64,000 bases of DNA from sequence record OK254198.1; one strand, given 5' to 3'. Of the stretch, positions 925 to 51,334 are shown one piece after another. The notes below the pieces were generated by a model that saw only the letters and a program-made list of their open reading frames with translations, searched no databases and was not told where the DNA came from. This DNA is from Escherichia phage PSD2001. The position numbers and the translations under genes are program-made. Position 1 is the stretch's first letter; every line of letters starts with the position of its first letter.

Positions 925-2701
<1,777 letters not shown>

Positions 2702-2711
2702 TATATTTTCC

Positions 2712-2951
2712 TCACGCTTTCTTAGCGATTTTCCAGTCAGCTTTAAATTGGTCAACATCAGAGTGGTGAATCCAGAAACCAGATGAGCTACCATCTTCAT
2801 AAAGAGGACAACCATCACACTCATCTTTCCAACCCATTGCACACAAAGTTTCTTCAGCTTTTTCCAGAGCTTCTGGATTGTTACCCTGGATTGTAAAGTA
2901 CCATTTGCCTTTAACTTCTGAATCTTTGATGCTCTCACGTTGTAATTTCAT
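2712..2951 (-). CDS. hypothetical Cys-rich protein (79 aa)
   Basis: ORF with GGAG RBS; CAMGWKDECDGC motif; early promoter cassette directly upstream. Confidence 0.55.
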   Translation of the reverse strand: MKLQRESIKDSEVKGKWYFTIQGNNPEALEKAEETLCAMGWKDECDGCPLYEDGSSSGFWIHHSDVDQFKADWKIAKKA

Positions 2952-2991
2952 TTTATTCTCCAGGGTTTTAGTTGTTAACTCAGTATGGGAC

Positions 2992-3030
2992 CATTATGTC
3001 ATAGCCCCATTTGGTTGTACACTACTTTTT
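2992..3030 (-). promoter_or_regulatory. T4-type early promoter cassette (UP A-tract, -35 GTGTACA, -10 ATAATG, conserved leader)
   Basis: Plus-strand pattern cattat-N16-gttgtacactacttttt; member of a repeated family. Confidence 0.6.
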
Positions 3031-3295
3031 AAATTTTATCAAGCCATTTTCCAAGTTTAGTCATTTCCTTGGTGGCTTTTTCCATACTTCTGAACTTAAC
3101 TAATAAAGGATAGGTATCTACACCCATCACCAGATTGGTTGCAAGACTATGTTCACCCACAAGCCATAATGAGTATGTTTGAACATCCAGACCATAATTT
3201 CTGTCTTTATGTAAACGTACACCCATTACTTCAAACTGTTCACTCGCCCTTTCTACTGCGTCCAGGAAATCATCTTTAGTCATATTAGACCCCAA
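3029..3295 (-). CDS. hypothetical protein (84-88 aa)
   Basis: ORF track; start may be the internal Met at 3283. Confidence 0.45.
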   Translation of the reverse strand: MGSNMTKDDFLDAVERASEQFEVMGVRLHKDRNYGLDVQTYSLWLVGEHSLATNLVMGVDTYPLLVKFRSMEKATKEMTKLGKWLDKI

Positions 3296-3647
3296 AAGTT
3301 GCTTTAATCAATGCAATGACTTCCGCAGCATTTTTGTGATTGACTTGCACATGAATGGTTTGGGTATCAACATCAGGAGCATCGCCATCAACTTCCAGGA
3401 AGTGGCGGAATTCACTTTCAGAGAGTTCAAAATAATCATCAGCTCCATCGCTATTCAGGATGGTACCATCTTTCATTTCAACTTTTTCAACAAAATAATC
3501 ACCTTCAATATAACACATATCCAGGACTTTGAAGGAATTACCATGTTGTTCCATCAACTTGACCATACACGAATTAGATTTAGGATTTTCTTTAATGAAA
3601 CGTTTTTTGGCAGCAGGGTCTAATACGTAAAATTTACCAGTTTCCAT
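3285..3647 (-). CDS. hypothetical protein (120 aa), paralog of 3994..4356
   Basis: Start moved to internal Met with GAGGA RBS; shares the DDYFELSE.EF motif and C-terminal helix with 3994..4356. Confidence 0.6.
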   Translation of the reverse strand: METGKFYVLDPAAKKRFIKENPKSNSCMVKLMEQHGNSFKVLDMCYIEGDYFVEKVEMKDGTILNSDGADDYFELSESEFRHFLEVDGDAPDVDTQTIHVQVNHKNAAEVIALIKATFGV

Positions 3648-3704
3648 TTTAATTTCCTCATATTCAATTGGGAACATATTATCATGTTCCCGTTGGTTTG
3701 TATA

Positions 3705-3932
3705 CTAAGCTTCAATCAAATTCATATAAAATTCAGCGTCTTCCGGGTGCATCCCTTCGCAATACTCATCAGCCATAAAGCGGGTAAGGTCTTCAAGAGG
3801 ACCTTGGACTTCAATTTGCATACTACAGAATTGCTTATCTTTAATGTAAGTCATGCACAAAGAAGGATAACGATTGCGAATAACTTCGTAAGTGTATTCA
3901 AAATCAACGATATCAATATTAACCTTAGCCAT
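3705..3932 (-). CDS. hypothetical protein (75 aa)
   Basis: ORF track; early promoter cassette upstream. Confidence 0.5.
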
Positions 3933-3959
3933 TTTATTTTCCTCATGTAGTTGATAGGT

Positions 3960-3995
3960 CTATAGTATCTCAACCATAGACCCTTGTAAACTGCT
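3960..3995 (-). promoter_or_regulatory. early promoter (-35 GTTTACA)
   Basis: Plus-strand ttgtaaac with -10-like element ~16 nt away; upstream of 3705..3932. Confidence 0.5.
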
Positions 3996-4356
3996 ATTTG
4001 AAAGCTTTTTGTAGAAGTTCAATGATTTGGTCAACGTTATTAGCATCCACAACACAATTAATAGAAACCGCACCTGAAGGTGTTTTTGCATAACTAGAGT
4101 ATTCACGGAAGCAATAAAACTCTTCTTCACTAAGTTCAAAATAATCATCGCCCATACCATCATCATTATAGATTGCACCATTAGCACAAATGATTTCGGT
4201 TACATAATCATAGCCGTCTGCACTTGATATTGATTTAACTTCAAACCAACCGCCATTTTCTTGGATGATGTCGACCATACCAGCATTCGATGAACTAATA
4301 TCAATGAAAGATTTAATACGATGTGGATTGAACTCATATTTTTTGCCGATTTCCAT
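3994..4356 (-). CDS. hypothetical protein (120 aa), paralog of 3285..3647
   Basis: ORF track; shared motif with 3285..3647; early promoter cassette upstream. Confidence 0.6.
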   Translation of the reverse strand: MEIGKKYEFNPHRIKSFIDISSSNAGMVDIIQENGGWFEVKSISSADGYDYVTEIICANGAIYNDDGMGDDYFELSEEEFYCFREYSSYAKTPSGAVSINCVVDANNVDQIIELLQKAFK

Positions 4357-4393
4357 TTTAATTTCCTCAGTTGTTATCAGTAGTTGATGGAAT

Positions 4394-4433
4394 CATTATG
4401 CCTTAGCTCAAAGGACTTGTACACTACTTTTTG
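4394..4433 (-). promoter_or_regulatory. early promoter cassette
   Basis: cattat...cttgtacactactttttg directly after the gene 32 terminator. Confidence 0.6.
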
Positions 4434-4444
4434 AAAATAAAAAA

Positions 4445-4460
4445 GGGACCCGAAGGTCCC
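4445..4460 (-). terminator. rho-independent terminator after gene 32
   Basis: gggaccCGAAggtccc followed by a T-run on the minus strand. Confidence 0.75.
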
Positions 4461-4466
4461 CTTATA

Positions 4467-5378
4467 TTAAAGGCCAGCCAGAAGGTCGTCAAGACCATCA
4501 TCAGAAGGCTCTGGAGTGCTTGGAGCAGTCGCAGTGCGTTCAGACTTAGCAGGTTTGCTGGAAGTGAAGTCTTCCATATCTTTATCAAAATCGTCCAGGT
4601 CAGCACCCAGTTTATCGGCTTGCGCAGCAGCTTTAGAAGCAGCACCACCGAGAGCAGCTGTACCCATTACTTTAGAGAATTTCTTCTGATTCTCTTCAAG
4701 AGATTTAAATACCAGCAATTCATTCAGGTCAGACATTTCGTCCCAAAGTTTTTTCTGGAATGCTTCATCATTGATGCCAGCGATTTCAGACTGGTTCATG
4801 AATTTGGAATCATCGTAGTTTTTATAATTGGAAACCATTTTAGATTTCAGTACGAAGTTCGCACCTTCAAAAGGACAGGTTACATCAACAGCTGTTTCGC
4901 CCATGTCAACATCGACTTCAACCATCTGGTTGATTTTGTCCATGATTTTCTTACCAAAGCGATATTTGAATACTTGACCTTCGTTAGACGGAACTGCAGG
5001 GTCTTTAATGACCAGGATGTTAGCCCAGTAAGAAGTATTACGCTTCAGTTTACGATATTCGGATTCGTTTGTATTGTACAGGTCATTCTTATTCATGTAC
5101 GCACACACAGGGCAGTTTTCATAATCGCCGTGAGTAGAAGTACAGTTTTCAATATACCATTGACCAGCATTTTTAAAGCCGTGGTTAACGAGCTTGATGA
5201 ATGGAGATGGATTTTCTTCATTCTTAGAAGGCAGGAAACGAATAACCGCAGAGCCGACGCCATCAGTATCTTTCAGTTTCCATTCTTTTTTATCGTCAGA
5301 AGAGAAACCAGAACCACCTTTAAGAGCGTTAAGGGAAGCAGCCAGGTCAGCAGGGTTTTTACGTTTAAACATAGACAT
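4467..5378 (-). CDS. 32: single-stranded DNA-binding protein gp32
   Basis: 303 aa; [23 protein letters not shown]...; Zn-binding Cys/His cluster; acidic C-terminus; terminator hairpin immediately downstream. Confidence 0.95.
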
Positions 5379-5438
5379 ATGATTTTCCTTAGATTATTTG
5401 ATTTTTAGCAGTTGTTTTGATTACGTATTAATTATACT

Positions 5439-6107
5439 TCAAAGTGCTTGAAGCGTTATTTGACAGTTTTTAACGGTCTCGATGAACAATTTACGAGCTT
5501 CAAGAGAATCTATATTTAAGATTTTCTTATAGGCATTTAGTTTGGTTGAATACTTTTCCCAAACCAAGTCGTTAGTCTGTTCATCATGTTTATTTATAAT
5601 ACCTAAAAATGAATCAAGCAAACAAAACGTTTCAAATGAGATAACATTCGATTGGAGAAGTTTGAAAATATAACTTGTGTTTACTTTAGTATTATACTCG
5701 AAAATCTCTTGGAGCGATTTGACTTCGACTTTCTTACTGAAGTAATATATGTTCTTTATATCATCTTCGTATACTTGTCTAATTCTTTTAAGTCGGCCAA
5801 TGTATTCCCTATAAAATATTAGAGCATCGGCATCACTTATATCGCCTATCCATGCATCCTGGTTTGCAACCAGGTTTGACATGAATATTAACGTTAATTC
5901 TTTAAGAGTGTACTTATCGCTAAGCTTTTCGAAAAAATACTTATCGCGACGTTTTTGATAAGCACTATCGGAGATTCGCATGGTCCAGTTATATTTGATA
6001 ATATCATAACGACCCGAAAAATGCTGTTTGATGGATAAGTACAGTTGGTATACTGATTTACCATTTATATATCGGTTGTTATTTGGAGGCATGCGAATCG
6101 TAATCAT
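5439..6107 (-). CDS. 59: helicase loader gp59
   Basis: 222 aa; MITIRMPPNNNRYINGKSVYQLYL... matches T4 gp59 along its length. Confidence 0.92.
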   Translation of the reverse strand: MITIRMPPNNNRYINGKSVYQLYLSIKQHFSGRYDIIKYNWTMRISDSAYQKRRDKYFFEKLSDKYTLKELTLIFMSNLVANQDAWIGDISDADALIFYREYIGRLKRIRQVYEDDIKNIYYFSKKVEVKSLQEIFEYNTKVNTSYIFKLLQSNVISFETFCLLDSFLGIINKHDEQTNDLVWEKYSTKLNAYKKILNIDSLEARKLFIETVKNCQITLQAL

Positions 6108-6397
6108 AACAAAAAGTCCAGCGTATTAGTTTTCTGTGTACGAGACATACTCGGACGAAGCAAGTTATCATCATATGCTTCATTCATAATCTTATCGACG
6201 ATTCCCGCAGGGATATATCGCGCAAAATTGCCTTCAGGAATTCCACGTTCTTCCAACCAGGCAGTCGCAGCTTCCAGATAAGACATTTCAGTTGACTCGA
6301 CCATAGCTTCAATATCAAGCCCGTTTTGCTGCTTACTAATCGCCCCGGAAGGCGATTCAGTTTTCTGTGTATCAAAATTAACTAAAGAGGACATCAT
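6104..6397 (-). CDS. 33: late transcription accessory protein gp33
   Basis: C-terminal 97 aa of the track ORF (start at internal MM) match T4 gp33 (...YLEAATAWLEERGIPE...KTNTLDFLL); upstream part of the track ORF overlaps dsbA. Confidence 0.8.
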   Translation of the reverse strand: MMSSLVNFDTQKTESPSGAISKQQNGLDIEAMVESTEMSYLEAATAWLEERGIPEGNFARYIPAGIVDKIMNEAYDDNLLRPSMSRTQKTNTLDFLL

Positions 6398-6647
6398 AGA
6401 GCTCCACAGCTTCGGTTTTTTCATCTTCAAAACGCTCACGAGTGCCTTTATGATACAGGCCGAGCTGTGTATTGAACATCTTACCGTCAACACCTAATTC
6501 AGTTTTTGCCTTGTCTTTAAGGTCTTTAATTTCGTCTGCATATGCTTCCATTTTTAATTTGGTATCGGAAGCAGCTTTAATCAGCTTGGCCAGTTCAGCA
6601 CCATGAGTATCAGGACAAAATTCAACTTTCACTTTTTTCTCTTTCAT
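6378..6647 (-). CDS. dsbA: dsDNA-binding protein DsbA (late transcription)
   Basis: 89 aa, same size as T4 DsbA, between rnh and 33. Confidence 0.8.
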   Translation of the reverse strand: MKEKKVKVEFCPDTHGAELAKLIKAASDTKLKMEAYADEIKDLKDKAKTELGVDGKMFNTQLGLYHKGTRERFEDEKTEAVELYDVLFS

Positions 6648-6655
6648 AATATACC

Positions 6656-7600
6656 TTAATAAAATTCGGCAATGTTTGCAGTTAGTTTAGACAGACCAGA
6701 CTTAACAAAGTAAGGATAAACTTTACTTTTAGCCGGGATAACGTAGTTATTATATCGTTCTAAGATTGAAGCGGATATTTCCGTTGGGATAAAGTCCATA
6801 TCAATCAACAATTGATTTTCACAGAATCTATTATATTGTTCTTCTGTTAAAAGCGTTTTCAAAACATCGTGGTCGTAATAGTTGAGTGCAATTTGTTCAA
6901 GCTCAGCGGCGCGGGTCGGTGGAGTGCGTTCGCCTTCTTCGTGGGTGTAATAAAAATCACCACGAACCTTGATGCTTGACACGTTATCTTTTTTGTCACC
7001 TTTAACAACCTTTGTCACGCAATCCATAAGGGCATCGCCTGATTTAGTTTTGACATATTTTTTCTGCATCGGGGACCATTGTTTCACCCCAGGGAATTTA
7101 TGTAGCTGTGTAAAGTCACCATCCGAAGAAACAATCATAACCGGATGTCCTAGACCAGTGAGCAACTTCGTTAATACTGCAATATGGTCATCAGCCTCGA
7201 CTTTATCCATATTCATCACGATGTAAGGCATATGTTTTTCCATTTCATCGATGATGATATGCATGGCAGCATGTAGACCTTCCCAATCGAATTGAGACTC
7301 TTCACGAGCTTTCGCACGGTTTTTCTTATAGTAATAAGATTTAGTCCGGCGCCAATAACCGTTCTTCGAGTTATCAACACAAATAATCGGAATCGTATAA
7401 CCGAGCTTCTTGAACTGCACAATATTTTTTCGGATAGAGTTTAGAACCAGGTGTCTGGTCATTGCAGTTGTTACCTTCGGAAAGCCTGCGTCTTTGCCGA
7501 ATTCCTGGAAGGCTGCAGCCATGATGAGCTGACTAAAATCGAGTAACTGAAAACCATCTTTTTGACGGTCTTCTTCAGGGAGTAAAAAATCTAAATTCAT
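6656..7600 (-). CDS. rnh: RNase H / FEN-type 5'-3' exonuclease
   Basis: 314 aa; ...GYWRR...YYKKNRAKAREES..DWEG...SSDGDFTQLHK... matches T4 RNase H. Confidence 0.93.
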   Translation of the reverse strand: MNLDFLLPEEDRQKDGFQLLDFSQLIMAAAFQEFGKDAGFPKVTTAMTRHLVLNSIRKNIVQFKKLGYTIPIICVDNSKNGYWRRTKSYYYKKNRAKAREESQFDWEGLHAAMHIIIDEMEKHMPYIVMNMDKVEADDHIAVLTKLLTGLGHPVMIVSSDGDFTQLHKFPGVKQWSPMQKKYVKTKSGDALMDCVTKVVKGDKKDNVSSIKVRGDFYYTHEEGERTPPTRAAELEQIALNYYDHDVLKTLLTEEQYNRFCENQLLIDMDFIPTEISASILERYNNYVIPAKSKVYPYFVKSGLSKLTANIAEFY

Positions 7601-7628
7601 ATGAACCTCTGTTCAATTAGTTGACTCG

Positions 7629-7658
7629 ATTATATTAGCATAAAATTTTTAAAGCAAT
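7629..7658 (-). promoter_or_regulatory. MotA-dependent middle promoter for rnh (MotA box ATTGCTTTA plus -10 TATAAT)
   Basis: Reverse complement reads ATTGCTTTA-N12/15-TAATATAAT, ~25 nt upstream of the rnh ATG. Confidence 0.6.
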
Positions 7659-7665
7659 ATAAATA
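7657..7665 (+). promoter_or_regulatory. T4-type late promoter (TATAAATA) for gene 34
   Basis: TATAAATA ~35 nt upstream of the gene 34 ATG. Confidence 0.7.
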
Positions 7666-7696
7666 CACATATACCAAATCAATAAGGATAAAGCAC

Positions 7697-10600
7697 ATGG
7701 CCGATATTTTAAAACCAGCATTCAGAGCAACATCCGGTCTCGATGCTGCTGGTGAGAAAGTCATTAATGTCGCAAAAGCTGATTACTCAGTTTTATCAGA
7801 CGGCGTTAACGTAGATTTCTTTATAGAAGAAAACACAGTTCAACAATATGATGCAACACGCGGATACAAAAAGAACTTTGCAGTTATTAATGATAACCGT
7901 ATTTGGGTTGCTCAACGTGATATCGCGGCTCCTGCGGGAGCATTTACCCCTCAGTATTGGTTAGCAACTCGTACTGACCCGAAATGGGAAACTGTTGCAT
8001 CTCCAACTCGTCAGCTTAACTCGGGTGAATTTATCGCCGTCGACTCGGCTGCAAGCTTTACCACATTTACATTGCCTCCAAACCCGGTTGACGGTGATAC
8101 CATCGTTATTAAAGATATCGGTGGGAACGTTGGTTACAATGAAATTAAAATCCAGTCAAGCAACGTACCAGGGGCAGGTAACCAAAAGATTGTTCGCTTT
8201 GGTAATCAGTATCCGGAAATTTTAATTACCAAACCATTCTCTTATAACATGCTTATCTTTTCAAACCGCTTATGGCAATTTTGGGAAGCTGGCAACGAAG
8301 AACGTGGCATCAGAGTAGAACCATCAACGGGTCGTTTCCATGCACAAGCTGGCGACTTTATTATGCGTCGTTATACAACTGGTGCACCGATTACTTTCAT
8401 TCTTCCTAAGTATGCAAACCAGGGTGATATTGTCAAATCTGTTGATATCGATGGCATGGGACCAACGTTCCACCTGATGGTTGAAACTTTTGACACCAGT
8501 TCCAGTCTTGGAAAAGCTGGCCAGCATCAAATGGAATTCCGTACCACAGGTGATGGTTTCTTCGTTTATAATGCTGCCGAAAAACTCTGGTATGTTTGGG
8601 ACGGTGATAATAAAACTCGTCTGCGCGTTATTCGTGACAGTGTTAAACTTTTACCAAACGAAAGCATCATTGTATTTGGCGAAGATAACTCAACTCCGGC
8701 AACGATTAATATCGATTTACCAACTAATGTTTTACAAGGTGACATTGTTAAAATTGCGCTGAACTATCTCCGCAAATCACAGACCGTTAATATAAGAGCT
8801 GCTGTTGGTGATAAGATTGCATCTGACATTAAATTGCTACAATTCCCTAAACGTTCCGAGTATCCACCGGATACAACTTGGGTGCTGGTTGATTCATTAA
8901 CCTTTAATGGCAACATCAGTTATACTCCGGTTATTGAATTGTCATATGCAGAAGATACAGTGGCTGGAACAAGTTATTGGGTTGTCGCTCAGAACGTCCC
9001 GACTGTCGAACGAGTTGACTCATTAAATGATTCCACGCGCGCACGTCTTGGTGTTATTGCTCTGGCAAACCAGACTCAGGCAAACGTTGACCATGAAAAT
9101 AATCCAGAGAAAGAACTTGCAATTACCCCTCAGACTTTAGCCAACCGTGTTGCTAAAGAGAACCAACGAGGCATTGCCAGAATCGCAACGACTGCTCAAG
9201 TAAATCAGAACAGTGATTTTGCATTTGTTGATGATGTAATTATTTCTCCGAAAAAACTCAATGAACGTACGGCAACAGAAACGAGACGTGGGCTCGCAGA
9301 ACTCGCCACACAGCAAGAAACCGATGCAGGTGTAGATGATACCACAATTATCACTCCAAAGAAACTGCAAGCGCGTCAGGGCTCAGAATCGCTATCTGGT
9401 ATTGTAACTTACGTTTCAACGACTGGTACAACTCCTGCTGCTTCACGTGAATTAAATGGTACAAACGTTTATAATAAAAATACGGTTAATCTGGTTGTTT
9501 CCCCGAAAGCTCTTGACCAGTACAAAGCTACTTACACTCAGCAAGGCGCGGTTATTCTTGCGGTTGAAAGTGAAGTAATTGCTGGTACTTCTCAATCTGG
9601 ATGGGCAAACGCAGTCGTTACTCCAGAAATGTTACATCGCAAAACTGCTCTTGATTCCCGTATCGGTTTAATCGAGATTGCTACCCAGGTTGAAACAGAT
9701 GCAGGAACCGATTATACCAGAGCTGTGACTCCCAAAACGTTAAATGACCGTAAAGCATCAGAAACGTTAACCGGCATAGCCGAGATTGCTACGCAATCAG
9801 AATTTGATACTGGAACTGATGATACTCGTATCTCAACCCCATTAAAAATTAAAAATAGATTTAATAATACTGCTCGTACTTCTGTTAATGCATTAAGTGG
9901 TTTAGTAGAAACAGGGACGCTCTGGGACCATTATAGCCTGAATATTCTTGAAGCAAATGAGACTCAGCGTGGCACAGCAAGATTAGCAACTCAGGGCGAA
10001 GTCAATACTGGCACTGACGATAAAACAATCGTTACTCCGCTTAAATTGATGTCGAAAAAAGCTACTGAAAATGCCGAAGGTATTGTTCGCATCGCGACAA
10101 ACGCAGAAGCAACAGCAGGCACATCAAAAGTCTTGGCCATTAGTCCGTCTGCGCTGAAATATATTGCACAAACGGAAACAACCTGGGAAGCATCTGAAAC
10201 ACTGCGTGGATTTGTTCGTTTATCTTCTGGTGCAGCTACTTCGGCCGCAACTACAACGACTGGTGCAGGATTTACATATGCAAATGGTGTGTATACTCCG
10301 GACCCAAGTAAACTGGTTAGCTATGCAAAATCTGGATATGCAGTTTCGCCTTACGAATTAAACCGCGTATTGCAAAACTTCTTACCGATAAATGCAATGG
10401 CTGTTAATGCCGAAAAACTGGATAACCTCGATTCGACCCAGTTTATTCGTCGTGATATTGCTCAGACTGTTGAAGGTGCGTTAACTCTTACTAAACAGAC
10501 AAATATCTCTGCTCCGGTTGTATCGACGAGCACTGCAGTGTTTACTGATGTAACGGCTGGCACTTCGACGTTCGGAACTGTGAATGTTGTTAACGGAACT

Positions 10601-30279: not shown

Positions 30280-32112
30280 TTATAGCGTCGCATTCATCCA
30301 GTCTTTACGCTGCTGGGAATCTTTACCGAATAGCATTTCGAACAGTTCTTTCCAGTTGTCGGGCAATTGAACAACTTCGAATACCGGTTCGAGCAATACA
30401 CGTTTATACTCGGAATCTTCCAGAGAACCAAGTCCCTTGATATATCGGATGGTGTGCTTCGGAAGTTTATCCTTAGCTTCTTCATAGTCAGGAAGAGAAT
30501 AGAACCATTCTTGTTTATCTTTGAGCTGTGCAATAATAACAGGAGTTTTCACAAAGCGAATTCGTCCTTCATGGAACAGCTCCGGCCAGTTACTGAAAAA
30601 CGCCAATAATGATGGATAGATACTACCGACACCATCCACATCCGCATCTGTCATGATAGCAATGTTTCGGTAATTCATATTCTCGGCCGGCTGACCAATC
30701 GTTAACCCAGTAATTGCACACACATCAAAGGCTTCGGCGTTCTTCATAACGTCAACGGCTTTCAGACCCCATGTGTTTTTAAACTTACCACGTAATGGAT
30801 AAGCACCTTGCAATTCACGGTCGCGAACCTTGATAAATGGACCAGTTGCAGAATCACCCTCGGTCAGGAACAGAGTCGTTTCCAGCTTATCATTGCCCCA
30901 TTCGTTGGCCTTGATATGCTTCTGTACCTTGGCCTTTGAAGCTTTCTTATTTGCCTTAGTCTCTGCTGCTTTCTCTGCAGCCAATTTACGGGCTAACGCA
31001 GCTTCAACAATCGGCATAATCAGCGGTTCATTTTTCAGAATAGCTTGCGCGATTTTCTTAGCATCAATCTTAATGTGATTTCGGATTTCACCAGCCGGAG
31101 AAGTCAATCGCTCCTTGGTCTGGGAATCAAATCGCATGTTGCTCATATCGCGGATGAACATAAGCATGGTGAGACATTCTTTAACTCGTGCCTTGGTCAC
31201 CTCGATGCCTTTATATTTGCGCTTAATCGCCGGCTGAAGGTGTTCACAGATATCATCCATAACACATTCAACGTGGTGTCCGCCATTCTTTGTATGAATG
31301 TTGTTGACATAAGTCAGCTGACGGAAACCGTCCGGGCTGGTCGTAAAGGCCATCGATACTGTATCAGTTTCCTGGATAACAACTTCAGTCCCGAATTGCT
31401 TGGAGAACTTCTTGAAATTACCATCAACCTTTTTACCATTAAAGGTGAACTGAATATCCGGATAAACAACCGCGAGAGTTTGCAGACGGTCCAATGTAAT
31501 ATCCAGATAAATCTGGGACAGACTATTTTCTTCAAAGTGACTAAAATCTGGAACAAATATAACAGTTGTACCTTTGCCCTTAGATTTCTTGGTGGACCAA
31601 CCTTTGTTTTCCATACCGTTGGAGCAGTTAACGGTGATTTCATTTGCACCATCAGCGGTAATCCCGGTGAACAATACAGAGAAAATATTGGTCAGAGAAG
31701 ACCCGACACCATTCATCCCGCCAGTTTTACGTTCAGCATCATCACCGAAGTTGCCACCGGCTTTTGGAATAGTCCATGCTGCAACAGGGCCAGGGATTTG
31801 TTCACCGTTTTGGTCTGTAACCATTGCTTGTGGAATACCACGGCCATTATCAGAAACCGAAATCTGATTATCTTTAATTTGGACATCAATTTTATTGGCA
31901 AATTTAAAACTGGTGCGAATTGCTTCATCAACAGAGTTATCGATAATTTCATCAATCAGTTTTACAATACCAGGAACATAGCTTACGGACTTATATTCAC
32001 CAAACAAGAATCGCTCATGCGCTTCATTTGAACTGGAACCAATATACATCCCGGAACGTTTTTTGATATGTTCGACGTCCGAGAGTACTTTAATTTCATT
32101 ATTAATCATCAT
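30280..32112 (-). CDS. 39: DNA topoisomerase II large (ATPase) subunit, uninterrupted 39+60 fusion form
   Basis: 610 aa single ORF; GyrB-like N-terminus; longer than the split T4 gp39 as recalled, consistent with a contiguous 39+60. Confidence 0.93.
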   Translation of the reverse strand: MMINNEIKVLSDVEHIKKRSGMYIGSSSNEAHERFLFGEYKSVSYVPGIVKLIDEIIDNSVDEAIRTSFKFANKIDVQIKDNQISVSDNGRGIPQAMVTDQNGEQIPGPVAAWTIPKAGGNFGDDAERKTGGMNGVGSSLTNIFSVLFTGITADGANEITVNCSNGMENKGWSTKKSKGKGTTVIFVPDFSHFEENSLSQIYLDITLDRLQTLAVVYPDIQFTFNGKKVDGNFKKFSKQFGTEVVIQETDTVSMAFTTSPDGFRQLTYVNNIHTKNGGHHVECVMDDICEHLQPAIKRKYKGIEVTKARVKECLTMLMFIRDMSNMRFDSQTKERLTSPAGEIRNHIKIDAKKIAQAILKNEPLIMPIVEAALARKLAAEKAAETKANKKASKAKVQKHIKANEWGNDKLETTLFLTEGDSATGPFIKVRDRELQGAYPLRGKFKNTWGLKAVDVMKNAEAFDVCAITGLTIGQPAENMNYRNIAIMTDADVDGVGSIYPSLLAFFSNWPELFHEGRIRFVKTPVIIAQLKDKQEWFYSLPDYEEAKDKLPKHTIRYIKGLGSLEDSEYKRVLLEPVFEVVQLPDNWKELFEMLFGKDSQQRKDWMNATL

Positions 32113-32162
32113 CTTTCCTCTTGTGTATGGAGGTATTATAAGTCACATATTTTAAAGCAAAA

Positions 32163-32176
32163 AGGCCCGAAGGCCT
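32163..32176 (-). terminator. rho-independent terminator after 32178..32582
   Basis: aggccCGAAggcct + T-run. Confidence 0.65.
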
Positions 32177-32177
32177 T

Positions 32178-32582
32178 TTATTTGAATCGAAGCTGCTCTA
32201 ACATTTTAATAGCTTGTAGGCGCCCGGCTTCAGTTTTAACCGTAATAATAACATCGCCGCCGGTAACAACGATATCCTCTTTTGATTCCTGTTCGGTTAT
32301 TTCAGAATCATATTCCTTTATCGGGGTTTCTTCAAAATATTTAAATTCATCACCAAAAATAAGACCGGTTCCATTACGGCTATGGAAAGAAAATTCAGTT
32401 CCATCGATAGTACTAAATTCCGTAACAACATTTGCTTCCATCTTAGTGACTGAAAACTCTTTGGTAGTAACCAAATCAATGATAGAGGTTCCTTGTTGGT
32501 TCAAAATGCTACCAGGCATACCGACATGTTTAAGGAAGCCATCTAAATCTTTAATGTGATAACTCTTTCCAATTTTAAACAT
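32178..32582 (-). CDS. hypothetical protein (134 aa)
   Basis: Internal Met with GAGGA RBS; upstream extension overlaps the lipoprotein gene; terminator hairpin directly downstream. Confidence 0.5.
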   Translation of the reverse strand: MFKIGKSYHIKDLDGFLKHVGMPGSILNQQGTSIIDLVTTKEFSVTKMEANVVTEFSTIDGTEFSFHSRNGTGLIFGDEFKYFEETPIKEYDSEITEQESKEDIVVTGGDVIITVKTEAGRLQAIKMLEQLRFK

Positions 32583-32589
32583 AATATCC

Positions 32590-32850
32590 TCATTCGAATC
32601 GGATGGTTGAATTCTTAAACAGCAATCCAGAACAAACAGTTCCTTTAACTTTCTTACCAGTTGGCCCGACGGCCGTAAAGCCTGTATGTTGGAAATCATC
32701 TTCAGAGCAACCCATCCAGTTATATCCGGTGATTTGGATTTGCTCATAGCCGTTTGCATCTAATACACGAATGGCATTATCTGCATCAGTACAACCAGCC
32801 AATGAAACCGCCAGTACCAGTGCTGCAATAGAACGATTAATGTATTTCAT
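32590..32850 (-). CDS. small lipoprotein (86 aa; signal peptide with LAGC lipobox)
   Basis: MKYINRSIAALVLAVSLAGCTD... lipoprotein signal peptide. Confidence 0.6.
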   Translation of the reverse strand: MKYINRSIAALVLAVSLAGCTDADNAIRVLDANGYEQIQITGYNWMGCSEDDFQHTGFTAVGPTGKKVKGTVCSGLLFKNSTIRFE

Positions 32851-32856
32851 AATTTC

Positions 32857-33033
32857 TCACTTAGTCAGCAGGTCGTAAAAACCGCCATTAACATGTTTAG
32901 GAGCCGAGACTAACCGAACAGCCAGCCGATGGCAATCAGGACAAACATCATTATCTCTTTCAGAGATTTTCTTGATTTTTTCGTATTCTTTCGCGCAGTC
33001 ATTGGATTGGCATTTGTAGTCATAAAGTGGCAT
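32857..33033 (-). CDS. zinc-ribbon protein (58 aa; FmdB-like CxxxxC...CPDC); not in ORF track
   Basis: Hand-translated MPLYDYKCQSNDCAKEYEKIKKISERDNDVCPDCHRLAVRLVSAPKHVNGG...; AAGGA RBS. Confidence 0.55.
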   Translation of the reverse strand: MPLYDYKCQSNDCAKEYEKIKKISERDNDVCPDCHRLAVRLVSAPKHVNGGFYDLLTK

Positions 33034-33034
33034 G

Positions 33035-33409
33035 TTATTCCTTAAAATGTGCTTTCAACATCTGGTAAACGGTCCAGGCTTCAGAGTTATTAGAAATAGT
33101 GATTTTAGTCAAAGGGAATTCGCTTGGTTCAAATGCTTCATCAGCGTCTTCACATTCATCTTCAGTATCGTCATCTTTTTCTTCTTCAAAGAAACGACGT
33201 TCATCTTCCTTTATGAATATTCTCTCTATTCCACCGGTCGAAAATTCTATCCGATATACATCACCACCTTCAATTCCGACTGGTCTAAATCCTTCACCAT
33301 TGATTATAGCATCAGCTATATTATCATTATCAGAGCATAACAAACGGAATCTGCTTTCAGCAACATTATCTTTAAAATAATACCATTTATCAGTTTCAAA
33401 TTTCAACAT
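33035..33409 (-). CDS. hypothetical acidic protein (124 aa)
   Basis: Internal Met with AGGAGA RBS; acidic tract EEEKDDDTEDECEDADEAFEPSEF. Confidence 0.5.
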   Translation of the reverse strand: MLKFETDKWYYFKDNVAESRFRLLCSDNDNIADAIINGEGFRPVGIEGGDVYRIEFSTGGIERIFIKEDERRFFEEEKDDDTEDECEDADEAFEPSEFPLTKITISNNSEAWTVYQMLKAHFKE

Positions 33410-33626
33410 GATAAGTCTCCTTCCAAAAATCTGTACCATCTTCTGATTCTTCGCGGAACAGCGCATAGCTGGGTAGTTCCGCACCTTCATACGCATACAC
33501 ATAAATGATGTCAGTGGTGCAAAGAAATTCATTGATATTTTTCTTAACAATCACTTTATCACTTTCAGCGGTTTCCCAGAACTCTTCAGCGGTCAGGGAA
33601 GTGGTCACGCAATCTTCATTAAACAT
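33396..33626 (-). CDS. hypothetical acidic protein (76 aa)
   Basis: ORF track; GAGGAG RBS. Confidence 0.5.
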   Translation of the reverse strand: MFNEDCVTTSLTAEEFWETAESDKVIVKKNINEFLCTTDIIYVYAYEGAELPSYALFREESEDGTDFWKETYHVEI

Positions 33627-33672
33627 AATATTCTCCTCAATGATAGGGCAAAAACCCTATCATTTTTATAAT

Positions 33673-34204: not shown

Positions 34205-34240
34205 CCATTATACTCTGGCCCCAAGAGTTTGTACACTTTA
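34205..34240 (-). promoter_or_regulatory. early promoter cassette with stem-loop
   Basis: gggaccattatactctggcccc...tttgtacact; upstream of 33673..34164. Confidence 0.55.
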
Positions 34241-34243
34241 AAT

Positions 34244-34999
34244 TTAATTAAAAATTTCAACAACCATGGAACGTGGTACAACAGTAAATTCACCAGCATG
34301 GACAACGTTCAGGAGTTCAACACCATCCTCAATCCACTGGTCTGTTACCCAACCACAAATGGAACTGTTAAATGGGCGTTTGATTTGAACTGGTTTACAC
34401 AACAAGTCAATAGGGTCACCCAGTTCGCTAACTTCTTTCAGCAGCACAGATTCACGCGGATAAAGGATAGCTTCAAGATTGTCACCTGATTCATTGACTG
34501 CAGTAAATTCAAAGATGCTTTGGTGATTGTGGTACTTAACTGTTTTAACGGTAAATGGAGTAAATCCAAAAATACCTTTCAGTACGCGCCAACCAGCATG
34601 CATTGCAACAGTCTTTCCAAATTGACTATCATCTTCAATAAGCTGATAGGTTTTACCAACTTTGATAGGAGTTTCTTCAACTTCTTTGAAGAGTTCAATC
34701 TCAGCTTCATAAACCATAATTTTTTCTACTTCATTAGTATCAAGGCGACGTGCATGCAGAATATATGCTTTATCAAACCAGTTACTTTTTACAAAAGTTT
34801 CAACAATAAATTCGCCTTCACCTAAAGCATCAGTCAAAGTATTATATCCAGAAACCATAGCTGCGTTTTGAATAATAGGTTCAATCAGTTGATAAGTTTT
34901 GTTAATTTCAATAGTCATATTTTGTTTCTCAAGTTTTAATGGTTTAATTGGGCGAACATACATACTTACAACATCAAAGTCAATAAATTCTGGTTTCAT
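34244..34999 (-). CDS. hypothetical protein (251 aa) with internal repeat and C-terminal domain shared with 33673..34164
   Basis: Internal duplication (..NKTYQLIEP.. / ..GKTYQLIEDD..); shared C-terminal domain. Confidence 0.6.
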   Translation of the reverse strand: MKPEFIDFDVVSMYVRPIKPLKLEKQNMTIEINKTYQLIEPIIQNAAMVSGYNTLTDALGEGEFIVETFVKSNWFDKAYILHARRLDTNEVEKIMVYEAEIELFKEVEETPIKVGKTYQLIEDDSQFGKTVAMHAGWRVLKGIFGFTPFTVKTVKYHNHQSIFEFTAVNESGDNLEAILYPRESVLLKEVSELGDPIDLLCKPVQIKRPFNSSICGWVTDQWIEDGVELLNVVHAGEFTVVPRSMVVEIFN

Positions 35000-35256
35000 T
35001 ATGCAACCTTATTGAACATCGCCAGTTGATTAGGTTGTACAACCATAATTTCACGACGACCTTTTGCATTTGACACGTTCAGGTAGATGCCTTTGTTCAT
35101 GTCTGTTTCTTTATCATATACCGCAATTTTATTGACAGTAAAGATTTTACCACGAATATTTGTAAATGCACATTCAAACGCTTTAGTCAGACCTGCTTCA
35201 GCAGCTTGAAGAGCAGACATTTCATATTGTTGGCCAATTTCAAAAGAAGTAATCAT
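34999..35256 (-). CDS. hypothetical protein (85 aa)
   Basis: Internal Met with GAGGA RBS; the track ORF's 5' extension (STTDEDNK) is the translated conserved leader cassette. Confidence 0.5.
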   Translation of the reverse strand: MITSFEIGQQYEMSALQAAEAGLTKAFECAFTNIRGKIFTVNKIAVYDKETDMNKGIYLNVSNAKGRREIMVVQPNQLAMFNKVA

Positions 35257-35287
35257 TTTGTTATCCTCATCAGTAGTTGATGAGATG

Positions 35288-35325
35288 ATTATGTCTCTTT
35301 CCATTGGCCTTGTACACTACTTTTT
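35288..35325 (-). promoter_or_regulatory. early promoter cassette
   Basis: gattatg...cttgtacactactttttat; between dexA and 34999..35256. Confidence 0.5.
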
Positions 35326-45797: not shown

Positions 45798-46091
45798 TTA
45801 TTCACCTGTAACCCATTGAACAATCTTGCTGTTGTCAAATGAAGCATCGCAATACAGAACATAGTTATACTGCATAACGTCACCAGAAGCCAGTTGGTCA
45901 GATACTTCTTTAACCATATCAGGGTGGTCACGTTTAGTAATGTTCATGATATCAGCATAAATCTGATGTTCAACATCGGTCTGGTCAGCAGTCATGGACC
46001 ACTCACAAAGGTCTTTATCAAGTCCAGCAGTAACTGGAGCTGTACCACATGATGCTACGGTAAGAATTGCTGCGATTAATAACTTTTTCAT
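45798..46091 (-). CDS. sp: Spackle periplasmic protein (superinfection exclusion / lysozyme inhibitor)
   Basis: 97 aa; signal peptide; ...DKDLCEWSMTADQT.VE.QI.ADIMNI.KRD.P.M...GDVMQYNYVLYCD... matches T4 Sp. Confidence 0.9.
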   Translation of the reverse strand: MKKLLIAAILTVASCGTAPVTAGLDKDLCEWSMTADQTDVEHQIYADIMNITKRDHPDMVKEVSDQLASGDVMQYNYVLYCDASFDNSKIVQWVTGE

Positions 46092-50830: not shown

Positions 50831-51334
50831 TTAGTTAATACCTTGGCGTGCTTTCTCTTTAGCTACACATTTATTAATATAGCTCAGACGGTTTTGAGCA
50901 GAACGCTGATACATATCGCGATACTCATTGGCTTTTGGAGAACCCGTCTCCGCTGCCTGATAAGCTTCAGCGCGCATGATGTTTATCTGCATATTGATAT
51001 ATGACATGCAGACCTGTGAAATCTGGTTAACAGTATCCAGGTCATTTTGTCGCTTGGTTTTTGCTTCCAGCTTGGCAATGATTTCGTCATGCTTCGCCGC
51101 TTGCTCGCGTTTGTACTCAATTTCACGTTGAGCATATTTCGCGCAGTTGTTTCCGCATTGATTGTTGTCGCGTTTGTAGATAAGTCCAGTACCACCTTTG
51201 AAATCAAAGGAACCATTATGCACCTGACGGTCCGCAGCAATTCGCGCTTTACCAATCTCGTTGGCATTAACAACATCACCCTGGTAAGCACAACCAGATA
51301 GCAGCATAACAGCTGCGATAGCTAACTTTTTCAT
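50831..51334 (-). CDS. lipoprotein (167 aa; signal peptide with LLSGC lipobox)
   Basis: MKKLAIAAVMLLSGCAYQG...; occupies the slot where T4 has beta-gt/42. Confidence 0.6.
   Translation of the reverse strand: MKKLAIAAVMLLSGCAYQGDVVNANEIGKARIAADRQVHNGSFDFKGGTGLIYKRDNNQCGNNCAKYAQREIEYKREQAAKHDEIIAKLEAKTKRQNDLDTVNQISQVCMSYINMQINIMRAEAYQAAETGSPKANEYRDMYQRSAQNRLSYINKCVAKEKARQGIN

Follow-up and report, generated by a model that had tools for sequence, protein, structure and literature searches.

Three small genes upstream of topoisomerase gene 39 in an Escherichia phage: a putative GroEL modulator, a predicted lipoprotein and a GoF-family paralog

The three small genes that stand just upstream of topoisomerase gene 39 in OK254198.1 are best read as encoding unrelated accessory proteins of different compartments, gathered at the end of a Gaprivervirus early transcription unit, a reading to which we give a probability of about 0.7. 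Across related phages the three genes vary independently; they are neighbours and not one envelope or exclusion module, as a preliminary description of this DNA had proposed, and what groups them is the common descent of T4-like phages and the way these pack their operons. As a finding this is ordinary, and most of it has been annotated already. One member of the trio, the predicted lipoprotein gp39.1, belongs to a very large family and is treated here at greater length.

The locus and its early transcription unit

The analysed stretch of 64,000 nucleotides from OK254198.1 (hereafter the window) is closest to Gaprivervirus genomes of the SP18/CJ20 type, with 97 to 98% identity. On its minus strand, open reading frames of 58, 86 and 134 aa lie closely packed at the coordinates given in the preliminary description, separated by 6 nt between 39.2 and 39.1 and by 7 nt between 39.1 and the 134-aa frame, and a UUCG hairpin, conserved and located shortly before gene 39, closes the trio. 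The features of the locus are as follows.

33396..33626, minus strand: cef, 76 aa, overlapping the start of goF and sharing an early transcription unit with it
33035..33409, minus strand: goF, 124 aa, directly upstream of 39.2 and translationally abutting it; paralog of the 134-aa gene
32857..33033, minus strand: gene 39.2 (NwgI ortholog), 58 aa, FmdB-family zinc ribbon
32590..32850, minus strand: gene 39.1, predicted prolipoprotein of 86 aa, matching phrog_902 at 1.7e-36
32590..32601, minus strand: microhomology CGATTCGAATGA, 12 nt, at the end of 39.1; one putative cassette boundary
32178..32582, minus strand: ORF134, 134 aa, GoF-family paralog of the RB69ORF005c/RB32ORF005c type
32178..32189, minus strand: microhomology CGATTCAAATAA, 12 nt, at the end of the 134-aa gene; the other putative cassette boundary
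32160..32179, minus strand: UUCG hairpin AAAAGGCC-UUCG-GGCCUUUU with an 8-bp stem, beginning within the last gene's stop codon
32135..32159, minus strand: MotA-dependent middle-promoter-like site of gene 39 (tttTGCTTTA, 12 bp, TATAAT)

Both upstream genes were identified by similarity, cef through Pfam T4_Cef (3.5e-23) and goF through BLASTP against T4 GoF (1e-17) and phrog_622 (1.5e-29), with the SP18 annotation agreeing in each case. Since goF ends only 1 nt before the start of 39.2, the packing runs on upstream and is not peculiar to the trio. No promoter dedicated to the trio was found upstream of it, the nearest good early-type promoter being that upstream of motB; between motB and cef lies a hairpin whose coding strand carries no U-tract. 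An Rfam search returned nothing relevant. The genes do belong to an early transcription unit, as had been proposed, and their 856 bp would be the final three genes of a T4-type early unit, probably motB-cef-goF-39.2-39.1-ORF134. Homologs of 39.2, 39.1 and the 134-aa gene occur in 880, 1,064 and 550 phage records, respectively, and dN/dS relative to the Tequatrovirus orthologs is 0.05 to 0.07 for both 39.2 and 39.1.

The 3′ end of this unit would be the UUCG hairpin, overlapping the putative MotA-dependent middle promoter of gene 39. Where the preliminary description had the genes ending at a terminator, a conserved structure is indeed found: the hairpin has a folding energy of -11.1 kcal/mol, is kept in five genomes after whichever gene stands last, and in Mosigvirus MM02 shows a compensatory GGGC/GCCC swap. 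Against its being a terminator stand a z-score of -1.69, an interrupted U-tract (UUGCUUU) and a consensus terminator scan of the window, which did not call it; without a clean U-tract, the hairpin may stabilise the RNA rather than terminate transcription. We regard it as probably the 3′ end, by presumed termination, or a stabiliser of the early transcript.

The MotA box is described as (a/t)3TGCTTtA, 12 ± 1 bp upstream of TAtaaT (PMC2988021). By sequence match, the gene 39 site fits both this consensus and the spacing and is a predicted promoter; it overlaps the hairpin U-tract and is conserved in the alignment. The window contains 14 matches to the middle-promoter pattern where 4.4 would be expected, and none of 100 shuffles reached 14.

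gp39.2 and the GoF-family paralog

Profile searches bear out the FmdB-like zinc ribbon that had been suspected in the 58-aa protein: gp39.2 scores 44.2 bits against Pfam PF09723, Zn_ribbon_8 (curated cutoff 34.4), and 45.5 bits against TIGR02605, CxxC_CxxC_SSSS (cutoff 31.3). With MPLYDYKC at the N-terminus, which carries the MP-x-Y-x-Y motif, its cysteines are arranged as C8-x4-C13 and C31-x2-C34, and all four are kept in eight orthologs; the first knuckle thus differs from that of typical FmdB proteins, which is C-x2-C. Database records often label the family as an "FmdB-like transcriptional regulator," a label for which we found no experimental support. Most phages carrying 39.2 are those of Escherichia and Shigella.

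The closest well-studied relative is gp39.2 (NwgI) of T4, which in the re-sequenced genome MT984581 is likewise an FmdB-type ribbon of 58 aa with the same four cysteines and occupies the same slot after goF. It shares 54 of 58 residues (93% identity) with the protein described here, the four substitutions of the latter being N11K, N28T and the last two residues. The goF-39.2 order is constant in SP18, EAWsc9, RB14, Nami, MM02, phage 212 and T4. According to the accounts of Ang and Georgopoulos (2012, Genetics 190:989) given in PMC4396842 and PMC5153855, T4 NwgI moves host GroEL towards an open, GroES/gp31-binding state, and 39.2 has a genetic phenotype in T4, so it is expressed there; the same two sources describe NwgI as needed on specific groEL mutant hosts. 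Together with its conservation, this phenotype confirms the small zinc-ribbon frame of the preliminary description as a genuine gene. We take gp39.2 here to be the NwgI ortholog and, with the function carried over from T4 by orthology, a cytoplasmic GroEL modulator. It would bias GroEL to the open GroES/gp31-binding state and in this way aid phage growth when the chaperonin is limiting. The earlier picture of the zinc ribbon as a regulator paired with the lipoprotein gives way to this assignment, insofar as the T4 work is represented in those accounts.

The third gene of the trio appears in a mechanical ORF list as a 193-aa frame starting at an upstream ATG. The 134-aa start is preceded by a GAGG ribosome-binding site and agrees with the annotations of SP18 and EAWsc9. 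Its product, ORF134, matches phrog_622 over residues 1 to 134 (8.6e-15) and the goF family phrog_13003 (2.2e-8), and aligns collinearly with GoF with 10 invariant columns. Pairwise BLAST of ORF134 against GoF or MotB.1 was not significant, the relationship being visible to profile methods only; identity is 18 to 25% to GoF, as compared to 31 to 38% to ORF005c of Tequatrovirus and Mosigvirus. An N-terminal beta-rich domain, an acidic linker and a C-terminal hairpin plus helix make up its architecture. In common with T4 GoF (ComC-alpha), ORF134 has its PHROG family, an N-terminal beta domain that starts F-x-h-x-K-x-Y, an EF-x-FFEE motif, the acidic linker and a C-terminal helix of the form ...hTV...L..h.hL...FK.

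GoF belongs to the LSm-like GoF/Frd.2/MotB.1 family (Kim et al. 2025, PMC12152347), whose N-terminal domain is a five-stranded bent beta-sheet of SH3/LSm-like type (PMC12152347). A low-confidence model of ORF134 (pLDDT 63) has SH3-like fold neighbours (FeoA, IdeR-type), in agreement with those reported for GoF (PMC12152347). No export signal or signal peptide was found in ORF134. We consider it a cytoplasmic GoF paralog, with a tentatively predicted SH3/LSm-like N-terminal barrel and a likely role in binding RNA or protein. The PinA label given to ORF005c of phage Nami was rejected, as hhalign against T4 PinA returned a probability of 2.3% with 12 N-terminal residues aligned.

ORF134 would be dispensable and carried as a cassette between the two 12-nt microhomologies listed above. 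The pattern CGATTCRAATRA has only two occurrences in the 64 kb, and in phage 212, T4 and RB14 the end of 39.1 is joined straight to the hairpin. The place of the ORF005c-type gene relative to 39.1 differs between genera.

The predicted lipoprotein gp39.1

By its predicted localisation, gp39.1 is the only envelope protein of the trio. Its N-terminus carries the charged residues K2 and R6, the hydrophobic stretch SIAALVLAVS and then LAGC, a layout that corresponds to a signal peptide of 19 aa, a lipobox with Cys20 and a mature protein of 67 aa (Cys20-Glu86). The lipoprotein signal noted in the preliminary description holds up under a PROSITE PS51257-type rule ([LVI][ASTVI][GAS]C with the Cys at position 15 to 35, a charged n-region and a hydrophobic h-region), which only 4 of 1,351 start/ORF combinations in the window pass. 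The lipobox pattern can mislead when used by itself, since it also matches the Spackle homolog of the window (46091..45798), and T4 Spackle is a periplasmic protein not known to be lipidated. For the Moby ortholog of gp39.1, an SPII call by LipoP is on record, and the lipobox cysteine is present in at least 85 of 94 homolog clusters, the few exceptions keeping a hydrophobic N-terminal anchor. Cys20 and C73 are kept in at least 90% of the aligned clusters, and C48 is invariant.

The gp39.1 of T4 (MT984581) is also 86 aa long, with 78% identity, the same signal peptide and cysteines, and LIGC instead of LAGC as its lipobox; the C-terminal motif GTVCSGL(L/F)FK(N/D)STIRF is common to both. For T4 39.1, the RNA is early and the protein has been detected. 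In T4 the hairpin comes directly after 39.1; here the 134-aa gene stands between the two.

The family is large: at least 2,140 clusters (50% identity, E ≤ 1e-3; metagenomic), all of small proteins, with the domain extending to the C-terminus in the best 150 of them and a C-terminal tail ...RF(x) in the 94 closer clusters. Among the relatives are variants anchored by a transmembrane helix and others with extra cysteine pairs. Homologs occur mainly in large myoviruses, and are found in 249 Klebsiella-phage records as well as in phages of Stenotrophomonas, Burkholderia, Rhizobium and Agrobacterium. Bacterial homologs amount to only four loci in 185,579 species genomes; one of these is clearly prophage. 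The protein gp39.1 ranks among the most widely conserved small proteins of predicted export in large phages of Gram-negative bacteria.

An AF2 model (pLDDT 78.7) shows one helix and a four-stranded sheet, with weak fold neighbours among periplasmic or inhibitor-type alpha+beta proteins, namely cystatins, PepSY/YpmB and the colicin M immunity protein. Foldseek of this model against viral models recovered family members only, a PDB sequence search gave no match, Pfam gave only a weak lipid-attachment-site match, and PHROGs only phrog_902, of unknown function. The literature search turned up no paper on either gp39.1 or ORF005c.

The protein would be exported by Sec, lipidated at Cys20 and cleaved by signal peptidase II. 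Because the +2 residue is Thr (in 76 clusters; Asp in 0 of 94), the predicted destination is the outer membrane, in its inner leaflet, where the mature domain would face the periplasm and probably be disulfide-bonded. A tether by lipid or transmembrane helix, together with a domain that is near-invariant across very different hosts, makes a conserved periplasmic target likeliest, and gp39.1 most likely binds such a target rather than a specific outer-membrane receptor. Tentatively, it might protect the envelope of the infected cell, either by superinfection exclusion or by inhibiting an incoming or host wall-degrading activity. Of the exclusion or envelope role once proposed for the whole trio, this is the part that stays plausible, for the lipoprotein alone. 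Work on exclusion, envelope takeover or lysis could reasonably take up gp39.1.

A broader idea, which we hold to be doubtful, is that gp39.1 is the founder of a very large phage family whose target would be a universal component of Gram-negative envelopes. Each member would be a small periplasmic domain, tethered to the membrane and disulfide-bonded, and would end in a near-invariant tail, ...GTVCSG-x2-FK-x-STIRF(x). This aromatic tail may bind in a strand-like manner to a factor for assembly or quality control of outer-membrane proteins; alternatively, gp39.1 may bind peptidoglycan. If true, either would make for a phage takeover or exclusion mechanism of a new kind, which would have escaped T4 genetics since the signal peptide is hidden in the reference sequence (see below).

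A narrower form of the protective role appears unlikely, namely, that gp39.1 inhibits a periplasmic wall-degrading enzyme or times lysis, on the model of Spackle on tail lysozyme, Ivy/MliC on lysozymes or a modulator of lysis inhibition. A family predicted to be extracytoplasmic and membrane-tethered throughout suits a periplasmic target, its strong conservation suits a conserved one such as peptidoglycan or lysozyme, and both the protease-inhibitor and immunity proteins among the weak fold neighbours and the prevalence in large myoviruses point the same way. However, the phage already encodes Spackle, as a separate gene distinct from gp39.1, and Mosigviruses manage without 39.1.

More improbable still is a receptor-blocking exclusion lipoprotein of the T5 Llp or phi80/N15 Cor type, which would inactivate the phage's own outer-membrane receptor from the periplasmic face. 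Llp is a disulfide-dependent lipoprotein of about 60 aa, which gp39.1 resembles in size and in its extra cysteines; the early expression known for T4 39.1 and the combination of small size, an outer-membrane-type lipoprotein signal and two extra conserved cysteines would fit such a role, as would the homolog in an Achromobacter prophage, about 1.1 kb downstream of a CI-like repressor gene, a typical place for exclusion genes. Indeed, T5 Llp, the Cor-type lipoproteins and T4 Spackle are likewise small, early, exported proteins acting in the periplasm, but a sequence relationship of gp39.1 to any of them is not detectable (Pfam, PHROGs, PDB), nor does it resemble any exclusion family of Pfam or PHROGs. 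Different from the Llp/Cor type, 39.1 is conserved across hosts and adjoins topoisomerase gene 39, unlinked to genes for receptor-binding proteins. T-even phages use different receptors, and a common protein receptor is unlikely for a protein near-invariant among phages of Escherichia, Klebsiella, Stenotrophomonas, Burkholderia and Rhizobium. Moreover, the relatives tethered by a transmembrane helix, presumably in the inner membrane, would have no comparable access to an outer-membrane receptor.

Gene order and the T4 reference sequence

Comparison of related genomes shows that both the order and the content of the trio are variable. RB14 and Nami have 39.2-ORF005c-39.1 in place of the order 39.2-39.1-ORF134 seen here. 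In T4 and phage 212 the arrangement is 39.2-39.1, while Mosigvirus MM02 shows 39.2-ORF005c, 39.1 being absent from Mosigviruses. The 39.1 homologs of Klebsiella phages and of phages that are not T4-like occur without 39.2, and around distant 39.1 homologs neither 39.2 nor a goF-family gene is found within 2.5 to 4 kb.

That the three genes nonetheless form one exclusion or host-envelope module, with the zinc ribbon as regulator or partner of the lipoprotein and the 134-aa protein as its third member, could draw on the 6- to 7-nt spacing, on co-transcription and on the adjacency of 39.2 and 39.1 in T4, Gapriverviruses and, with an intervening gene, RB14-type phages, but it is highly improbable and already largely refuted by this variable synteny. 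Against it also stand an unrelated cytoplasmic target of gp39.2 (GroEL, demonstrated in T4 according to the accounts cited above), a GoF paralog that has no signal peptide, and close spacing that reaches goF and cef upstream and is a property of the whole operon.

Separately, we note that 39.2-39.1 adjacency is maintained across Tequatrovirus and Gaprivervirus, such that a loose functional link is possible.

The T4 comparisons above use re-sequenced genomes, as the old reference differs from them at this locus. In NC_000866 and UniProt Q01435, gp39.1 is a protein of 65 aa with no signal peptide; the reference 39.1 has a broken lipobox (LINS) and a frameshift, and 39.2 has a frameshift as well. 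All re-sequenced T4 genomes depart from it at 12 of 191 positions, two 1-nt indels among them, and their gp39.2 (58 aa) and gp39.1 (86 aa) are intact. We had considered that 39.1 and 39.2 are decaying in T4, which was rejected on the same grounds. The 65-aa gp39.1 of NC_000866 looks like a sequence error, and users of this record and of UniProt Q01435 and Q01434 will find a gp39.1 without its signal peptide and a truncated gp39.2.

Three compact genes between goF and gene 39

The region examined shares 97 to 98% identity with Escherichia phage CJ20 and Shigella phage SP18, both of the genus Gaprivervirus (Tevenvirinae). As the preliminary description had it, three compact ORFs lie here; the intergenic gaps are 6 nt (39.2/39.1) and 7 nt (39.1/ORF134):

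33033..32857, minus strand, gene 39.2, zinc-ribbon protein, 58 aa
32850..32590, minus strand, gene 39.1, lipoprotein by signal rule, 86 aa
32582..32178, minus strand, ORF134, 134 aa

Such tight packing is not peculiar to the trio: only 1 nt separates the end of goF from 39.2, and cef and goF overlap. In SP18, the annotated order is dexA, two hypothetical genes (one being motB.1), motB, cef, goF, gp39.2, gp39.1, a hypothetical protein "similar to RB69ORF005c" (the ORF134 counterpart) and gene 39, the topoisomerase II large subunit; phage EAWsc9 labels the trio "CxxC-CXXC-SSSS domain-containing protein", "lipoprotein" and "hypothetical protein". Close relatives thus already carry annotations for all three ORFs, which represent known gene families, one of them experimentally characterised.

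The trio had also been said to end at a terminator. A hairpin with an 8-bp stem and UUCG loop (32179..32160, -11.1 kcal/mol) indeed begins within the stop codon; in five genomes compared it sits after whichever gene is last, and in a Mosigvirus it carries a compensatory GGGC/GCCC change. Termination is something we only infer, since the tail (UUGCUUU) is no clean U-run, a consensus terminator scan did not call the site and shuffling gave an equally stable fold in 13 of 200 cases. The tail doubles as a MotA box: tttTGCTTTA, 12 bp and TATAAT at 32159..32135 agree with the T4 middle-promoter consensus and spacing, so the hairpin marks the boundary between the early unit and the gene 39 middle promoter.

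Gene 39 itself is a single 610-aa ORF (30280-32112, minus), the fused 39+60 form as in RB14, and has none of the gene 60 split, mobA and translational bypass of T4. Upstream of motB, an early-promoter-like site (34207-34235, minus; AT-rich upstream DNA, GTGTACA, 17 bp, TATAAT) is likely the start of the unit containing the trio. Between motB and cef lies a perfect 10-bp hairpin (33639-33664; AATGATAGGG-6 nt-CCCTATCATT), which on the coding (minus) strand leads directly into the cef ribosome-binding site without a U-tract; a role in RNA processing or stability is more probable for it than one in termination.

The NwgI zinc ribbon and a GoF-like protein

A profile search placed the 58-aa protein above the curated thresholds of both Pfam Zn_ribbon_8 and TIGR02605, bearing out the proposed zinc ribbon. 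Comparison with Tequatrovirus orthologs shows strong purifying selection on both 39.2 and 39.1 (dN/dS 0.05-0.07); the small ORF is thus conserved. Its casting as a regulator-like module partner did not hold up: "FmdB-like transcriptional regulator", found on many records, is a family name and no tested function, and the protein is the ortholog of T4 NwgI, with 4 substitutions in 58 residues relative to gp39.2 of re-sequenced T4 and the same location after goF. As summarized in PMC4396842 and PMC5153855, the T4 39.2 product is the 58-aa peptide NwgI (Ang and Georgopoulos, 2012), it biases GroEL in favour of the open state, to which GroES or the phage co-chaperonin binds, and its deletion abolishes growth on specific groEL mutant hosts. 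By orthology, gp39.2 would likewise act on GroEL in the cytoplasm.

The T4 comparison depends on the sequence used. In the classical reference, NC_000866, 39.1 lacks signal peptide and lipobox and 39.2 is cut to 45 aa. Using the 191-nt stretch concerned as query (L003, the NC_000866 locus, 5540-5730) and comparing it with re-sequenced T4 (MT984581; L015, 480-720), we found this version to be common only to the old entries M89919, X06220, AF158101 and NC_000866. The re-sequenced T4 genomes listed all depart from it, by 6-7% of positions (12/191 in most) and with two 1-nt indels among the differences, and MT984581 encodes intact 58-aa gp39.2 and 86-aa gp39.1 (lipobox LIGC). This argues against decay of both genes in T4, the reading that NC_000866 would suggest. 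Most likely the classical reference is wrong here, or else it reflects an atypical stock; RefSeq and UniProt have probably inherited an old sequencing error, which is why UniProt does not list T4 gp39.1 as a lipoprotein.

For ORF134, PHROG profiles gave a full-length match to phrog_622 (8.6e-15), which also matches the window's GoF (1.5e-29), and a further match to the goF family phrog_13003; pairwise BLAST did not detect the ORF134-GoF relationship. ORF134 aligns collinearly with ORF005c of RB14, ORF005c of a Mosigvirus and three GoF proteins over an N-terminal F-x-h-x-K-x-Y, EF-x-FFEE, an acidic linker of variable length and a C-terminal ...TV...L...L...FK helix; hhalign against MotB.1 N-terminal domains was weak and in register. 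On this sequence evidence we consider ORF134 a GoF paralog. Neither a signal peptide nor a hydrophobic segment was found in it, and deletions of goF and motB.1 have no laboratory phenotype (Kim et al., PMC12152347); ORF134 would be a dispensable cytoplasmic GoF-type protein, possibly RNA-related. The label "PinA peptidase inhibitor", on one record of the ORF134/ORF005c family, gains no support from profile comparison. Nearby, a 251-aa MotB.1-like protein (34244-34999, minus) apparently holds two tandem GoF/MotB.1-type N-terminal domains (IEINKTYQLIE... and IKVGKTYQLIED...) and, C-terminal to them, a segment that matches the MotB family PF17613 (residues 211-247), and a 101-aa ORF (34999-35304) has a similar FEIGQQYEM start.

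The lipoprotein gp39.1

The suggested lipoprotein signal was confirmed: in gp39.1, K2 and R6 accompany a hydrophobic core and the lipobox LAGC, whose cysteine is Cys20. Of 1,351 candidate ORF starts across the window, no more than 4 pass a PROSITE-type lipoprotein rule, gp39.1 among them. Among its close homologs (94 clusters at 90% identity), Cys48 is invariant, Cys20 and Cys73 are each present in at least 90%, and the protein almost always ends in ...RF or one residue beyond. The residue after the lipid-modified cysteine is Thr in 76 of the 94 clusters and never Asp, which by the E. coli sorting rule predicts an outer-membrane location. The family is widespread: tblastn found gene 39.1 in 1,064 phage records (249 of Klebsiella phages), with matches also in Stenotrophomonas, Burkholderia, Rhizobium and Agrobacterium phages, and an HMM search run in full over 1.84 billion representatives returned 2,140 clusters at E <=1e-3 and 915 at <=1e-10. 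The best 150 representatives span 53-142 aa, most with the domain at or near the C-terminus; some relatives have one more cysteine pair, and a minority carry an N-terminal transmembrane helix in place of the lipobox. Combined, these features point to a domain that is extracytoplasmic, tethered and disulfide-bonded; its target, reachable from either membrane, would therefore lie in the periplasm.

The AlphaFold model (pLDDT 78.7) packs one helix on a four-stranded sheet; Foldseek against viral models returned family members alone, a PDB search gave no sequence relative, and our literature search found no paper on gp39.1 function. In T4, 39.1 RNA is early and the protein has been detected by proteomics. 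Going by sequence rules, gp39.1 would be exported by Sec, lipidated at Cys20 and sorted by Lol to the outer membrane, and may, as a binding protein or inhibitor in the periplasm, act on some conserved target. Protection, for instance through exclusion or through resistance to wall degradation, is a tentative reading (probability about 0.3). A strict receptor block like that of the exclusion lipoproteins Llp (T5) and Cor (phi80/N15) is unlikely because gp39.1 is conserved across hosts and lacks linkage to receptor-binding genes.

The phage already encodes a Spackle homolog (46091..45798, minus, 97 aa; phrog_1586 at 9.5e-43), whose signal peptide holds a lipobox-like VASC and likewise passes the lipoprotein rule, either a false positive or a hint of a lipidated Spackle. 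A 167-aa ORF (50831-51334, minus; phrog_1754) with a textbook signal, MKKLAIAAVMLLSGC, is a second candidate early lipoprotein.

Gene order in relatives

The trio had been read as one exclusion or host-envelope module. Synteny argues otherwise, since order and content vary among T4-like phages.

Gene order after goF
This window, SP18, EAWsc9: 39.2, 39.1, ORF134
Phage 212 (Gaprivervirus-like, 98% identity over the shared region; no genus in record): 39.2, 39.1
T4: 39.2, 39.1
RB14, Nami: 39.2, ORF005c, 39.1
Mosigvirus MM02: 39.2, ORF005c; 39.1 absent

Host distributions of 39.2 and 39.1 differ as well. Around distant 39.1 homologs (RB43, Moby, BCSR5, an Achromobacter prophage, metagenomic loci), neither 39.2 nor any GoF-family gene occurs inside 2.5-4 kb; these homologs lie within arrays of small accessory genes. 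Overall, the earlier observation is confirmed, and its interpretation partly supported, for the lipoprotein only. The sequence CGATTCRAATRA occurs just twice in the window, once at the 3' end of 39.1 and once at that of the ORF134 gene (the final 12 nt in each), and so flanks the latter, the signature expected if a cassette were gained or lost by short-homology recombination; its rarity is descriptive only, as the pattern was defined after the sequences were seen.

One distant homolog, with a transmembrane-helix anchor (L019, a 52-kb metagenomic phage contig; 1042-1299 and 7293-7478), lies in a small-gene array that includes Acb2/Tad1-like and Tad2-like anti-defence proteins. In Achromobacter veterisilvae (L007, NZ_UFQC01000010.1, region 1822-8006), a CI/LexA-like repressor gene precedes the prophage homolog (84 aa; lipobox VAGC) by ~1.1 kb, and the homolog adjoins an apparent diversity-generating retroelement that comprises an Avd-like 133-aa ORF, a reverse transcriptase containing YVDD and DUF1566-like target proteins.
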